Below, one piece after another: positions 55,931 to 59,167 of a stretch of 64,000 nt of DNA (positions are counted from its first letter, which is position 1; every line of letters begins with the position of its first letter). Source of the DNA: Candidatus Daviesbacteria bacterium (GTDB lineage: Bacteria > Patescibacteriota > Microgenomatia > Daviesbacterales > UBA10151); the NCBI GenBank assembly GCA_016195715.1, contig JACPZA010000031.1:60336-124335 (forward strand), written 5' to 3'. The notes below the pieces were generated by a model that saw nothing but the letters and a program-made list of their open reading frames with translations, did no database searches and was not told where the DNA came from. The position numbers and the translations under genes are program-made.

Positions 55931-57316
55931 ATGAGCAAAGGATCAGTAGTTCAAATCATTGGCCCAGTAGTAGATCTTCAGTTTCCTGAGGATGAACTTC
56001 CAGCACTTTATAATGCAGTGGAAATTCCATTAGGAAAAGAAAAGATTGTTGCCGAGGTTCAACAGCATTTAGGTGAAGGAATGGTTCGAGCTGTGTCTAT
56101 GGCATCAACTGATGGGTTAAAAAGAGGGACAGAAGTTACTGATACAGGTTCCCCCATCTCAGTCCCAGTTGGACCAGAAGTTTTGGGAAGATTATTTGAT
56201 GTGCTAGGTCAAACTGTAGATAATAAAGGCCCCCACAAAGCTAAAAAAACCCTACCAATTCACAGGTCCGCTCCCAGCTTTGATGAACAATCTACCACTT
56301 CTGAAATTTTTGAAACTGGTATAAAAGTTATAGATTTAATTGCCCCGTTTGTAAGAGGTGGAAAAGTGGGGTTATTTGGTGGAGCTGGAGTTGGTAAAAC
56401 TGTTTTAATTCAAGAGTTAATTAGAAATATTGCAGCTGAGCATGGTGGGTATTCTGTTTTTACTGGAGTTGGTGAAAGAACCAGAGAAGGAAATGATTTA
56501 TATAAAGAGATGCAGGAATCTGGAGTAATAGATAAAACTGCCATGGTATTTGGACAGATGAATGAACCACCTGGAGCTCGTCAGCGTGTAGCTTTATCTG
56601 GTTTAACCATGGCTGAATATTTTAGAGATTCTGAGGGTAAAGATGTACTTTTATTTATAGATAATATTTTTAGATTTTCTCAAGCTGGATCTGAAGTTTC
56701 TGCACTTTTGGGAAGAATTCCATCAGCTGTAGGTTATCAACCAACTTTGGGAACTGAGATGGGACAACTTCAAGAGCGAATTACCTCCACTAAAAAAGGT
56801 TCCATCACTTCAGTTCAAGCGGTTTTTGTACCAGCAGATGATTATACCGACCCAGCACCAGCTGCAACTTTTGCCCACTTAGATTCTACAATTGCTTTGG
56901 AGCGAGCTTTAACTGAGCAAGGACTTTATCCAGCAGTTGATCCACTGGCTTCTTCATCAAGGGCTTTGGATCCAAATATTGTAGGTCTTGAACATTACGG
57001 CGTCGCAGTTGGTGTCCAAAAAGTGCTGCAAAGGTATAAAGATTTACAAGATATTATTGCTATTTTAGGAATGGAAGAGTTATCTGATGAAGATAAGCTA
57101 GCTGTGAATAGAGCGAGAAAAATTCAAAGAGCACTTACCCAACCTTTCTTTGTGGGTGAAGCTTTCACTGGTAGAAAAGGAAAATATGTTGGAGTTAAAG
57201 AAACAGTTAAACTTTTTAAAGAGATTTTAGCAGGCAAATGGGATCATCTTCCAGAACAAGCATTTTATATGATAGGTGGAGTTGAGGATTTATCTTCTAC
57301 TAAAGCTGTGGCATAA
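55931..57316 (+). CDS. atpD: F-type ATP synthase subunit beta
   Basis: The P-loop GGAGVGKTV is present, with DNIFRF and the DELSEED-like motif MEELSDEDK. Confidence 0.95.
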
Positions 57317-57738
57317 GGTATCTTAGGATATTTGGGTGCAAAAATCCTAGTTGTTCTTCTTTTAGATTGTTCTAAAACTTCTTTTAAACTTGTATTAATA
57401 AGATCAAATCCAACAGAAAAAACTGGTATGTTTTCAGGAATTTGTGGAACTTTTGTTAAATACTGTCCAATTTGGCTTAAGCAATATCGAGTTGCAACTA
57501 CTCCTAACCAAGTGTCAACTGTAACAGCTGCGGTAAGAATATCATTTGGATAAACTCTAACTTCATCGGGAAATACAATATTTGTTTGAGGATCTTTAAT
57601 TGGAATTCCAAAAATTGTTTGACTTTGAGCATCGTAGGAGTAAAGCCTAGTTCTTTCATCATCAGGAAGTCTTCTAAAGTTATCTCCTACTGCAAATACT
57701 TGATTAGGTAGTATTTTTAATAATCTGTTACTTTCCAC
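57265..57738 (-). CDS. Hypothetical protein; possible remnant of an S26 signal peptidase I-like gene (in-frame stops further upstream, GTG start only)
   Basis: Motifs [16 protein letters not shown] and upstream HFAPGGLRGQDAF weakly resemble SPase I boxes D and E. The reading frame is open to 57987 but has no ATG. It overlaps the atpD 3' end by 52 nt on the opposite strand. Confidence 0.25.
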
Positions 57739-58092
57739 AACTATTCCTATAAAAGCATCTTGCCCTCTTAAGCCTCCTGGTGCAAAATGCCAAGCAAAAT
57801 GATAGTTACCATAAGTGGTTCCTTGATCTCCTAAAAGAGCAAAATGAATACATTCAGGAAAAGGGTTCCATGTTATTGCTCCAACAGCGCTTGCTGTCTT
57901 ATCCCTCTTTCTATAAGTGACTGAATTTTGGTCATATATCCACCAAAAACTAAATTTCCAGGAGCAAAAACTCTCTCAACTAACTCCCTATTTTGACTCA
58001 TGTGAAGAATTATATCTTATTAAGTTAGCGCCAGCAAACTATAGGTTGGAGTTTGCGCTTTTGGCAGACAAAATTCAATCCTTCAGCTATGC

Positions 58093-58362
58093 TCATTTTT
58101 TGTAAACTTCATCATGGGTGCCTAGTTTAAAAAAATAGAAATCACCATTCTCTGTATAAAGCATTCGGTAGCCTTTATCTATTGAAATACTCCAGGTATT
58201 TTTTACTTCTCTTGTGATCTTGTGCAAACGTAAGGATTTATGCCGAGGATTTTGCTTGAATAATTCTAACTGTTTTTGGATTTTATCAAATAATTTAATA
58301 TCTCTCCTCTGAAGTATCTGTAGCTTTTTATGAAAGTCAGGACTAAATTTAATGGATTTCAC
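58093..58362 (-). CDS. Type II toxin, RelE/ParE superfamily (YafQ/RelE-like mRNA interferase)
   Basis: 89 aa, containing ..KSLRLHKITREVKNTWSISIDKGYRMLYTENGDFYFFKLGTHDEVYKK. It overlaps the upstream small gene by 4 nt. Confidence 0.55.
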   Translation of the reverse strand: MKSIKFSPDFHKKLQILQRRDIKLFDKIQKQLELFKQNPRHKSLRLHKITREVKNTWSISIDKGYRMLYTENGDFYFFKLGTHDEVYKK

Positions 58363-58649
58363 AAATTCTTGAAGAATTCGTCTATATCTTTAACCTCAAT
58401 TGCTTTATCCTTGTCCTTTAATGCCTTTTTATATGCCTTAATTGTACTGTCTGATGCTTCAAAGATTGGATAATCCATATCTTCTACATCTTTTAAAATT
58501 AAATGTTTAACATAACTTGCTAAAGGCAAGCCAAACTTACTCGCCTTACTTTCAAGGAAATCTTTTAAAGCAACTGGTAGGTTAATTTTAATTTGGGTTT
58601 GTTGGGTAATCATAAATAATATTTTATCACCAATTCCAGGACTTTTCAA
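58359..58649 (-). CDS. Antitoxin, ribbon-helix-helix-like
   Basis: 96 aa, with IKINLPVALKDFLESKASKFGLPLASYVKHLI (beta-strand followed by two helices). It is translationally coupled to the toxin. Confidence 0.45.
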   Translation of the reverse strand: MKSPGIGDKILFMITQQTQIKINLPVALKDFLESKASKFGLPLASYVKHLILKDVEDMDYPIFEASDSTIKAYKKALKDKDKAIEVKDIDEFFKNL

Positions 58650-58718
58650 GGACTAAATTAATCTTTAATCATTTTTATCAACATCTCAGGAATTGGTCTG
58701 CAGGCACAAAATATTGAA

Positions 58719-59078
58719 TTAGTTTATTTCTTCAAAGTTGCCATCTAAGTGTAAATAATAAGTTTCTACTGCTATATCAGGATATTTTTCTTTAATTTTA
58801 TCTGCAGCTGTTTTTAGATCTTCAGCATGCTTTTCTGGCGTTCCCTCTTCTCCATAAGCTCCACAATCTTCATGGTTAACTAAAACTATCTTATGAATAT
58901 CATGTAAACGCTTAGAAATTTCAATTTGTTTAAAAATATTTTCAAAATCTTTAACTCCTCCAGCCAAAGCCACTCTATCAAAAGTTTTTGGTTGAAAATA
59001 TTTTGCAATCCATTGATTGATAAAATCCTGAAAGCGAAAATCAATACAAGTTACTACTAATCCTTCACAGCTGTGCAT
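58719..59078 (-). CDS. Short beta-class carbonic anhydrase-like protein
   Basis: The zinc-ligand motifs CxDxR (VVTCIDFR) and HxxCG (VNHEDCGAYG) are present. At 119 aa it is shorter than typical beta-CAs. Confidence 0.45.
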   Translation of the reverse strand: MHSCEGLVVTCIDFRFQDFINQWIAKYFQPKTFDRVALAGGVKDFENIFKQIEISKRLHDIHKIVLVNHEDCGAYGEEGTPEKHAEDLKTAADKIKEKYPDIAVETYYLHLDGNFEEIN

Positions 59079-59167
59079 ATTAAAGCTGATAATATAATAT
59101 CTTTATTTTTCTGACAAGGTTACAAGTAAAGTAACTCATTAGAGTATTTAAGAATGCTATAATTGGA

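Follow-up and report, generated by a model that had tools for sequence, protein, structure and literature searches.

Cyanobacteria and chloroplasts carry split F1Fo atp operons (atp1/atp2), and some alpha-proteobacteria have separate F0 and F1 operons. In these split operons, the genes for the beta and epsilon subunits (atpD-atpC) are kept together and the break falls elsewhere. A second relevant class comprises the noncontiguous operons, or excludons, of Staphylococcus aureus, which are defined by a demonstrated operon transcript spanning an antisense gene (PMC11034616; PMC7154746). Here, we describe an atp locus in a metagenome-assembled genome (MAG) of Candidatus Daviesbacteria, analyzed within a 64-kb window (the whole stretch of DNA studied), in which atpC is detached from the other atp genes. 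We put the probability at about three in four that the split is an old, lineage-wide feature, with an inverted carbonic anhydrase (CA)-like gene as the wedge and a toxin-antitoxin pair as a recent passenger.

A detached epsilon gene

The features of the locus, in window coordinates, are as follows.

51370-52110, plus strand: atpB, first gene of the contiguous atpBEFHAGD block (open reading frames and Pfam)
Between atpB and atpD, plus strand: atpE, atpF, atpH, atpA and atpG (open reading frames and Pfam matches)
55931-57316, plus strand: atpD, F1 beta subunit, last gene of the contiguous block (Pfam ATP-synt_ab, E 8e-75)
57265-58001, minus strand: orfX, frameshifted pseudogene; its ~205-aa family is uncharacterised and has a DarT-like ADP-ribosyltransferase fold
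57317-58732: genome-specific insertion of 1,416 bp (alignment with the nearest relative, L180)
58093-58362, minus strand: type II toxin of the RelE/YafQ/ParE superfamily, 89 aa (TIGR02385, PF24732)
58359-58649, minus strand: RHH-type antitoxin (sub-threshold profile matches and partner geometry)
58719-59078, minus strand: Pro_CA_2, a minimal beta-class carbonic-anhydrase-like protein of 119 aa (PF20393, E 5.4e-18)
59079-59173: divergent CA/atpC spacer of 95 bp with back-to-back -10 boxes
59174-59584, plus strand: atpC, F1 epsilon subunit, 136 aa (PF02823, E 9e-27; PF00401, E 9e-9)

Open reading frames and Pfam matches bear out the gene order proposed in a first-pass annotation, namely a contiguous atpBEFHAGD block with atpC 1.85 kb away; the canonical atpBEFHAGDC layout is absent from the window, as atpC does not lie directly downstream of atpD. 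Between the atpD stop and atpC lie 1,851-1,857 bp (the atpC frame opens at TTG 59168, and its likely start is ATG 59174, the equivalent of which is used in relatives). This gap holds four minus-strand frames, in the order orfX, RelE/ParE-like toxin, RHH-like antitoxin and Pro_CA_2, followed by plus-strand atpC. The minus-strand gene previously said to overlap the 3' end of atpD is real: it is orfX, with an overlap of 52 nt (57265-57316). AtpC has the beta-sandwich as well as the C-terminal helical domain, and AtpD is 82-85% identical to its counterparts in related Daviesbacteria loci. Among bacteria generally, the split arrangement is unusual: the atpD-atpC gap is at most about 200 nt in 73 of 80 diverse bacterial atpD loci and exceeds 700 nt only in the window's two closest relatives.

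An assembly or binning artefact, in which atpC was mis-joined to the contig, can be practically dismissed. No support for it was found beyond the source being a MAG, and the order atpC-CA-RHH-toxin-orfX, with the same junctions, is reproduced in three Logan assemblies made independently from other sequencing runs (L089-L091), one of which (L089) is base-identical to the window through the orfX frameshift region. The order of atpD, inverted CA gene and atpC also occurs in more than 20 related contigs, some longer than 1 Mb. The check for a mis-join suggested by the first reading of the sequence, run on these other assemblies, thus confirms the atpC junction.

The inverted carbonic anhydrase-like gene and its shared spacer

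The layout of atpD, inverted Pro_CA_2 and atpC is common to 22-23 distinct related loci, in which Pro_CA_2 is tail-to-tail with atpD on one side and head-to-head with atpC on the other. The atpD-atpC interval in related loci ranges from 377 to 6,273 bp, and in three loci (L103, L120 and L105) the CA gene is alone in a minimal interval of 377-408 bp. For 43 distinct CA homologues, the adjoining gene is a divergent atpC. At the protein level, CA identity across the clade is 60-84%, in line with vertical inheritance. The wedge is not universal, since the relative with the closest AtpD (L001, 83%) has a split operon but an interval devoid of Pro_CA_2; in a Woykebacteria relative (L003), atpD and atpC are adjacent. 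In the reading we favor, the older, clade-shared layer would be Pro_CA_2 itself, placed in inverted orientation between atpD and atpC in Daviesbacteria and close relatives. Because the inverted gene intervenes, atpC would no longer be transcribed from the atpB promoter as part of a simple operon running in one direction. Literature searches returned nothing relevant on atpC with carbonic anhydrase in Patescibacteria, or on the ATP synthase of Daviesbacteria.

The short beta-CA-like gene noted earlier proved real (PF20393, E 5e-18). Its product scores 65.8 bits against PF20393, above the gathering score of 30, and only 18 bits against the classical Pro_CA family PF00484, for which the cut-off is 25.7. 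The Cys/His/Cys zinc ligands and the Asp-Arg dyad (C11, D13, R15, H69 and C72) are invariant in alignments of 24 and 30 homologues. In its AF2 model (pLDDT 90.6), Pro_CA_2 takes the beta-CA fold: all 50 PDB matches listed for the model are beta-CAs, 13 of them with E <= 0.001, and Cab is among the top matches (1g5c; TMq 0.74-0.76). No characterised member of PF20393/Pro_CA_2 was found in the literature, and PADLOC defence models gave only a weak, implausible AbiEi match for this gene. Several other proteins were considered for a beta-CA link and, beyond the Pfam CDCA hits, rejected, with hhalign probabilities below 5% against the Pro_CA_2 profile: two proteins upstream of atpC in L001 (507 and 544 aa, with a C-I-D-G-R motif), a 358-aa protein in L081, and the CDCA-like proteins described below.

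The spacer between the CA gene and atpC carries a -10 box facing each way. On the atpC side, TGcTATAAT (59155-59163) is an extended -10 (TATAAT at 59158-59163, TG at 59155-59156) that stops 10 nt short of the atpC ATG; on the CA side, TATTAT (59094-59089, minus strand) likewise stops 10 nt short of the CA ATG. Across the clade, where the spacer spans 16-95 bp, a -10 box lies 5-10 nt from the ATG of atpC in 25 of 28 related spacers, of CA in 27 and of both in 24, as against shuffle expectations of 4.1, 4.2 and 0.95 +/- 0.95, respectively, with the proviso that the 28 spacers come from related, non-independent genomes. Within the window, the same geometry precedes 12 of 28 unit-first genes, atpB included, and an SD-like motif precedes none of the 28. 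Of the promoter analyses, only this comparative spacer test is informative, as generic promoter and terminator counts are no higher than in shuffles (for promoters in the region, 9 sites vs 11.1). These data suggest that atpC has its own leaderless-type promoter clade-wide. Boxes placed in this way, 5-10 nt from the start codons, would give atpC and the CA gene mRNAs with no leader or almost none, with the divergent 16-95 bp spacer driving atpC. The first-pass proposal of a separate atpC promoter is thereby supported, a -10 box being kept at equal distance from the start in 25 of 28 spacers; the TATAAT it placed at 59157 lies at 59158-59163.

Could atpC instead be expressed mainly by read-through from the atpB promoter, with the antisense genes embedded and reciprocally regulated through transcriptional interference or antisense pairing? 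The same architecture has been documented in S. aureus (PMC11034616; review PMC7154746). No intrinsic terminator is predicted after atpD, so that transcription could continue across the interval, and the minimal intervals are only 377-408 bp long. Moreover, atpD and CA overlap tail-to-tail in L180, which forces overlapping 3' transcripts. Against this, 25 of 28 spacers keep a -10 box close enough to the atpC ATG for a leaderless mRNA, a box that would be superfluous under read-through. In the window, a read-through transcript would run for 1.85 kb in the face of three opposite-strand promoter-like sites; in relatives, where the interval reaches 6.3 kb, it is unlikely that atpC depends on read-through. 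On balance, we regard read-through as the main source of atpC mRNA as improbable and favor a separate promoter.

A functional explanation for the position of the CA gene was also considered, whereby one bidirectional promoter co-regulates CA with epsilon and the CA protein works on or together with the ATP synthase, for instance in local CO2/HCO3-/H+ handling, making the split adaptive and not a neutral rearrangement. Pro_CA_2 is linked to atp genes in three layouts: atpD, inverted CA and atpC in this clade; atpD-atpC-CA in L013; and CA-atpBEFHAGDC in L152. Furthermore, the head-to-head CA/atpC spacer is tightly conserved, and in at least eight loci a second, CDCA-like gene lies between Pro_CA_2 and atpC (the CDCA repeat PF18484 exceeds the Pfam cut-off in L092 and is on record for L094; in the remaining loci, the gene is identified solely by a tblastn match of 23-66% identity to the protein of L092). 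However, about 30 Pro_CA_2 loci of other lineages have no atp gene in their available flanks, the gene has been lost from the L001 interval, the linkage within the clade counts as a single inherited event, and carbonic anhydrase activity of Pro_CA_2 is only putative. We thus find this explanation rather doubtful. Held with the same reserve is its broader form, in which Pro_CA_2, often together with the CDCA-like gene, would assist the F1Fo ATP synthase functionally in some members of the Candidate Phyla Radiation (CPR), having joined the atp locus on three or more occasions in different layouts, in Daviesbacteria under a compact bidirectional leaderless promoter shared with epsilon. If true, CO2/bicarbonate/proton handling and epsilon supply would be controlled together, independently of the rest of the enzyme. 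The linkage opens the question of whether Pro_CA_2 has a role with the ATP synthase.

Cargo at the atpD/CA junction

The nearest relative, L180, differs from the window at the tail-to-tail junction of atpD and CA. In L180, these genes overlap directly (CA 84% identical, AtpD C-terminus 95%); homology to the window breaks exactly at 57317 and resumes at 58733, boundaries that rest on one short contig (1,305 nt). Relative to L180, the alignment marks only these 1.4 kb, comprising orfX and the toxin-antitoxin pair, as a recent insertion, which also supplies new last codons (EEIN*) to the CA gene. The inserted DNA had no match in the phage collection. Positions 57319-57333 resemble the 3' region of the CA gene (58773-58787) over 15 nt, probably by chance.

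Related loci carry varied DNA in the same slot. Their intervals contain 84 ORFs, of which 62 are singletons, and cargo is almost never shared; Pfam assignments include glyoxalase (5), glycosyltransferases, EamA, zf-UBP and S26 peptidase. Toxin-antitoxin pairs recur in the slot, of the YafQ/RelB type in L115 and Gp49/HTH_3 in L129. In the favored reading, this second, recent layer would reflect a junction that accepts DNA without cutting genes off from their promoters, and this tolerance would account for the 0 to 5.9 kb of mostly unshared cargo found there in related genomes. In the window, the cargo would be a RelE/YafQ-type toxin, its RHH antitoxin and a decaying gene of DarT-like fold.

The toxin-antitoxin pair proved real. 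The toxin passes the cut-offs of RelE/ParE/YafQ profiles by small margins (TIGR02385 RelE_StbE, 28.5 bits vs 27.9; PF24732, 24.9 vs 24.4) and has 67 homologues, which are 60-74% identical to it and in Daviesbacteria carry the name RelE/StbE. All antitoxin scores are sub-threshold (DUF6290, 18.4 vs 27; RHH_5, 15.9 vs 26; CopG_antitoxin, 16.1 vs 28). Its ORF opens at TTG 58649, with a likely start at ATG 58613 (84 aa, matching homologous cassettes), and a promoter-like TTGAAA-17-TGnTAAAAT ends 7 nt before that ATG. The antitoxin lies directly upstream of the toxin and overlaps its start by 4 nt (58359-58362), a geometry shared by homologous cassettes. The latter, with toxins 60-64% identical and upstream partners of 84-87 aa, occupy three unrelated loci on three relatives' contigs, one of which is named Candidatus Daviesbacteria; the cassette family appears confined to Daviesbacteria-type genomes. 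PADLOC defence models did not match the pair, and as an islet it is ordinary.

The remaining gene of the insert, orfX, had been described as an SPase-like remnant. No S26 similarity was found, either in Pfam (no match at E <= 1) or by tblastn against the S26 gene occupying the same slot in L093 (no match at E < 5). Instead, orfX is a frameshifted member of the ~205-aa family, to which a DarT-like ADP-ribosyltransferase (ART) fold was assigned. A 1-nt deletion at about 57895-57896 parts the family N-terminus (57897-58001) from the C-terminal frame (57265-57896), and the frameshift sequence is the same in an independent assembly. The read-through tail adds ~30 aa, the last 17 codons overlapping atpD. 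Being frameshifted, the window copy is probably non-functional. Neither the annotated form nor the repaired 246-aa form matched anything in Pfam or NCBIfam, and no Pfam, NCBIfam, PADLOC or PDB sequence match places orfX in a known DarT/ART family. A word-indexed search of 5.8 billion proteins returned only orfX itself; a full HMMER search was required to find the family. The cluster names of its homologues carry no taxonomy or annotation. The protein had no match in phage and plasmid collections. The interval contains no macrodomain (DarG) gene, the neighbours of orfX being atpD and the RelE-like toxin.

The first-pass annotation proposed that a single toxin-antitoxin mobile element, bringing the CA-like gene and the SPase remnant, split the operon and was later stabilised. 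The cassette is indeed real and mobile within the lineage, toxin-antitoxin modules recur in the slot, and the interval is a 1.85-kb block on the opposite strand. However, the synteny comparison recovers the same ancestral arrangement in relatives lacking this pair, an outcome that the first-pass annotation itself had named as refuting its proposal: the split and the CA gene, 60-84% identical at the protein level, occur in 22-23 such loci, including those with CA alone, and L180 is split without the pair or orfX. Nor does the interval bear the marks of a mobile element. Pfam reveals no transposase, integrase or recombinase in 57265-59167, and no transposase or integrase appears in the 25 of 39 Pfam families listed for the 84 ORFs in relatives' intervals. 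Flanking direct or inverted repeats and target-site duplications amount to 12-28-nt imperfect matches at chance level, and there is no compositional shift (GC 0.29-0.37 across the interval vs 0.30-0.41 in the flanking atp genes). With orfX not S26-like, the SPase component is lost as well. We therefore consider a founding mobile element very unlikely; since the split is older than the insert, the toxin-antitoxin pair would be its passenger and not its cause.

Relation to known systems

A toxin-antitoxin pair in a core operon looks like a disruptive mobile hit; here, it appears to be a late passenger in a long-carried gap. The apparent expression of the regulatory epsilon subunit apart from the other seven subunits across a CPR lineage has no earlier account that we could find in the searchable literature. 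Epsilon is apparently transcribed from a very short leaderless-type promoter region that also serves, in the other direction, a minimal beta-CA-like gene. This bears on how epsilon levels are set in bacteria that are reduced and probably live by fermentation or in symbiosis. As a form of atp operon organisation, the CA wedge conserved in this lineage is modestly new, and no current view is overturned. The results also raise the question of whether, in very small genomes, accessory genes can land safely at tail-to-tail junctions.

The cargo genes resemble described systems in part. As in RelBE, YafQ-DinJ and ParDE modules, a small antitoxin lies upstream of, and overlaps by 4 nt, a ~90-aa toxin of RelE/ParE fold, the pair has its own promoter-like site, and the position of the cassette varies among relatives; unlike typical members, the toxin barely reaches family thresholds and the antitoxin falls below all Pfam cut-offs; toxicity and autoregulation are putative. 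The orfX product differs from DarT of DarTG systems, which are DNA ADP-ribosyltransferases (PDB 7yk3, 7omv and 8baq), in having neither sequence-level similarity nor an adjacent macrodomain (DarG) gene.

Pro_CA_2 shares with Cab-type beta-CAs (Methanobacterium thermoautotrophicum Cab, 1g5c; M. tuberculosis Rv1284) its predicted fold and the Cys-x-Asp-x-Arg and His-x-x-Cys zinc-site motifs, which are invariant in Pro_CA_2. However, at 119 aa it is shorter than these enzymes (160-170 aa), is only 15-17% identical to them, and belongs to a separate Pfam family, PF20393 'putative carbonic anhydrase'.

As in noncontiguous operons and excludons, opposite-strand genes are embedded within one functional operon, and overlapping transcription is unavoidable at the 3' ends of atpD and CA (in the window, atpD and orfX). 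Whereas the S. aureus examples are defined by a demonstrated transcript, here a conserved putative promoter just before atpC argues for an independent unit. With the cyanobacterial, chloroplast and alpha-proteobacterial splits, it shares the distribution of ATP synthase genes over more than one transcription unit, such that subunit stoichiometry cannot depend on a single polycistronic mRNA. Unlike those splits, the present one separates only epsilon, through an unrelated gene in inverted orientation, and leaves it within 0.4-6 kb of atpD.

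Gene order between atpD and atpC

In the window, the atp genes from atpB to atpD run head-to-tail and are separated from atpC by a gap holding four minus-strand frames. The ORF list and Pfam scan gave the coordinates and gene order that the first-pass annotation had reported.

Features around the atpD-atpC gap (positions in the window)
51370-52110, plus strand: atpB, followed head-to-tail by atpE, atpF, atpH, atpA, atpG and atpD (ORF list and Pfam)
55931-57316, plus strand: atpD, end of the head-to-tail block (ORF list and Pfam)
57265-57738, minus strand: orfX part 1, its open frame extending to 57975 (ORF list)
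57873-58001, minus strand: orfX part 2, a 42-codon ORF in a different frame
58093-58362, minus strand: RelE/ParE/YafQ-like toxin, 89 aa
58359-58649, minus strand: RHH-like ORF, 96 codons, overlapping the toxin gene by 4 nt
58719-59078, minus strand: Pro_CA_2, a beta-carbonic-anhydrase-like (CA) gene, 119 aa (PF20393, E 5e-18)
59168 or 59174 to 59584, plus strand: atpC (PF02823, E 9e-27; PF00401, E 9e-9)

One minus-strand frame does overlap the atpD 3' end, by 52 nt. Exact matches to the window's proteins belong to a Candidatus Daviesbacteria MAG and carry the locus tags HY025_05790 to HY025_05805. Because the order atpC-CA-RHH-toxin-orfX was recovered base-identical in independent Logan assemblies of three other runs, a mis-joined atpC is ruled out.

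Several further features of the region were recorded. The atpH (delta subunit) gene (52950-53348, plus strand) is short, encoding 131-136 aa in the window and in the relatives L081, L083 and L086; it covers only OSCP profile positions 64-172, and the N-terminal domain, which normally binds the alpha subunit, seems absent clade-wide. A T-box leader (50331-50610, minus strand; Rfam RF00230, 97 bits against a gathering score of 93) lies upstream of a class-I aminoacyl-tRNA synthetase-like gene (48737-49843, minus strand), and a tRNA gene (60596-60668, plus strand) is located between a YGGT-family gene (60160-60474, minus strand) and a class A penicillin-binding protein (PBP) gene (60713-63241). 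Most relatives have three glycosyltransferase genes after atpC, which the window lacks; rearrangement has thus also affected the DNA downstream of atpC.

The split and its cargo across relatives

An AtpD scan with one genome per species yielded 80 loci, in 73 of which atpC starts within ~200 nt of atpD. Large gaps (1.26 and 6.85 kb) were found only in the two closest relatives, whose AtpD is 82-83% identical, and the two genes are adjacent in a Woykebacteria genome (AtpD 77%). Further loci were found through contigs encoding Pro_CA_2 homologues and a metagenome scan. The same layout, with atpBEFHAGD followed by a variable stretch, an opposite-strand Pro_CA_2 gene and then atpC, occurs in 22-23 distinct loci, and a divergent atpC lies beside Pro_CA_2 for 43 distinct homologues. 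The interval ranges from a minimum class of 377-408 bp, in which the CA gene is the sole occupant (L103, L120 and L105), to 6,273 bp. Because these 22-23 related loci have an identical layout, the split is an inherited feature of the clade rather than one specific to the window, with the CA-like gene as its conserved wedge. The first-pass annotation had suggested the stabilised insertion of a toxin-antitoxin-bearing mobile element; in the relatives, this gene order is instead an ancestral state that lacks toxin-antitoxin hallmarks, an outcome which the annotation itself had named as refuting its reading. The observation of a divided operon is borne out, its interpretation only in part.

Apart from the CA gene, the intervals of 22 loci hold 84 ORFs of 50 aa or more, 62 of which lack a homologue in every other locus. 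Two kinds of cargo recur: a glyoxalase/VOC protein, in five loci, and a CDCA-like protein (PF18484), encoded between the CA gene and atpC. The remainder is mixed and includes an SLT transglycosylase, a signal peptidase, transporters and glycosyltransferases. Of the 39 Pfam families matched by the relatives' interval ORFs, the 25 listed include neither a transposase nor an integrase. Two further genomes hold toxin-antitoxin modules in the same slot. In L115 a YafQ/RelB pair comes immediately downstream of the CA gene (toxin 33% identical to that of the window), and L129 has a Gp49/HTH_3 pair.

The L115 contig (1,952 nt) carries two paralogous YafQ/RelB-type cassettes in the same orientation (22-493 and 1341-1881), which flank the atpC/Pro_CA_2 pair, one downstream of atpC and the other downstream of the CA gene. 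In L001, the relative with the closest AtpD, the 6.8-kb interval is without Pro_CA_2; two large proteins (507 and 544 aa) of no Pfam family, each with a C-I-D-G-R motif, are encoded directly upstream of atpC (L001 14971-18196). A 27%-identical homologue occupies the same position in another relative (L100 6373-7899), and hhalign found no significant link between these proteins and Pro_CA_2.

The window-specific insertion

In L180, the nearest relative by CA protein (84% identical), the atpD and CA stops overlap tail-to-tail by 14 nt. DNA homology between the window and L180 ends at 57316, the atpD stop, and picks up again at 58733. The window therefore holds a 1,416-bp insertion (57317-58732), which introduced orfX together with the toxin-antitoxin pair and gave the CA gene a few new final codons. 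No GC shift was seen in the insert, phage and plasmid collections gave no protein match to orfX, phages gave no DNA match to the insert, and a search for flanking repeats returned no convincing ones. A 15-nt match (87%) between 57319-57333, just past the atpD stop, and 58773-58787, in the CA 'KYPD' region, could be a scar of a CA 3' end duplicated on insertion, or chance.

Sixty-seven homologues are 60-74% identical to the toxin, the named ones being RelE/StbE of Daviesbacteria. Three other contigs from relatives, one bearing the name Candidatus Daviesbacteria, carry a homologous two-gene cassette at three unrelated places, next to Nramp/trehalase genes, a NUDIX gene, and a DDE transposase with a HepT/MNT pair. 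The cassette behaves as mobile within the lineage, and in the window the toxin-antitoxin islet is an ordinary passenger that arrived recently at a tail-to-tail junction tolerant of insertions.

For orfX, Pfam, NCBIfam and PADLOC gave no match and a word-indexed protein search returned only itself; a full HMMER search found 48 distant homologues, mostly 185-245 aa, the best 33-41% identical. Their N-terminus, E-x-V-F-x-P-G-N-L-V-x-G ... G-I-R-P, has its counterpart in the 42-codon ORF and not in the long frame; G-I-R and A-S-A-V-G are read in different frames, indicating one base missing at about 57895-57896. The long frame also overruns the homologues' end by ~30 codons, into atpD antisense. 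Given the missing base and the overrun, orfX is a pseudogene in decay, and the part that overlaps atpD is a read-through tail. The family alignment was used for an AF2 model (pLDDT 81.7), which matches ADP-ribosyltransferase folds, with Tpt1/KptA, CteC, OspC3, pierisin, heat-labile enterotoxin and pertussis toxin at lower ranks; Foldseek returned the same families, weakly. On the basis of this model, orfX is assigned with moderate confidence to an uncharacterised family of DarT-like ART-fold genes. Its earlier description as an SPase-like remnant was rejected, no similarity to S26 being found.

The CA-like gene and atpC expression

Cys11, Asp13, Arg15, His69 and Cys72 are invariant in the aligned Pro_CA_2 homologues, and these residues are the zinc ligands and Asp-Arg dyad of beta-carbonic anhydrases. 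With a pLDDT of 90.6 the AF2 model is of high confidence, and every one of the 50 PDB matches listed is a beta-class carbonic anhydrase, the top one a minimal 'Cab' enzyme (TMq 0.74-0.76). Pro_CA_2 is thus predicted to be a minimal beta-CA-like protein and a putative carbonic anhydrase, in agreement with the first-pass call; no paper on PF20393 was found.

A functional link between this protein and the ATP synthase seems unlikely, even though Pro_CA_2 sits beside atp genes in three different layouts: that of the Daviesbacteria-type clade and, outside it, directly downstream of atpC (L013) or directly upstream of atpB (L152). Also in its favour, a CDCA-like gene (cadmium carbonic-anhydrase repeat, 219-237 aa) often separates Pro_CA_2 from atpC, whose strand it shares; at least eight loci have it there (L092 6193-6906, L094 6216-6905 and L180 79-738, for example). 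The PF18484 cut-off is passed in L092, the family is on record for L094, and the other loci are assigned by 23-66% tblastn identity to the L092 protein. However, ~30 other Pro_CA_2 loci have no atp gene in the available flanks, and the L001 interval has lost Pro_CA_2. Because the CDCA-like gene also directly precedes Pro_CA_2 in loci without atp genes (L153, L155/L156), the two may constitute a separate pair.

For 28 distinct loci, the spacer that separates the CA start codon from that of atpC (16-95 bp) was searched for hexamers matching TATAAT in at least five of six positions and ending 5-10 nt before an ATG. Such a -10 box precedes atpC in 25 of these 28 related sequences, the CA gene in 27 and both in 24; composition-preserving shuffles gave 4.1, 4.2 and 0.95, respectively, and not one of the 2,000 approached the counts in the real spacers. 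The atpC box of the window, TGcTATAAT (59155-59163), lies 10 nt before the ATG at 59174. None of the window's 28 unit-first genes has an SD-like motif ahead of it, and 12 of them, atpB and the PBP gene included, show the same -10 geometry (for example at 51352-51369, 47570-47585 and 60695-60712); this genome seems largely dependent on leaderless starts. Together, the -10 boxes conserved near both start codons and these features of the window's genes support a separate transcription unit for atpC across the clade, and mark the spacer as a candidate compact bidirectional promoter of leaderless or near-leaderless mRNAs; for the window, the first-pass annotation had proposed such a unit from its TATAAT. 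The promoter is kept as putative since the spacers are related, a general promoter scan of the region did not rise above chance, and no terminator was predicted after atpD. The missing terminator would also fit some read-through from atpD into atpC, which may then form a 'noncontiguous operon' (PMC11034616; PMC7154746).

The notable feature of this locus is old and lineage-wide: the epsilon subunit gene stands apart from the rest of its operon, with a minimal beta-CA-like gene as the wedge, and the two would share a tiny divergent promoter. This lineage-wide detachment represents a new variant within the known diversity of atp operons.
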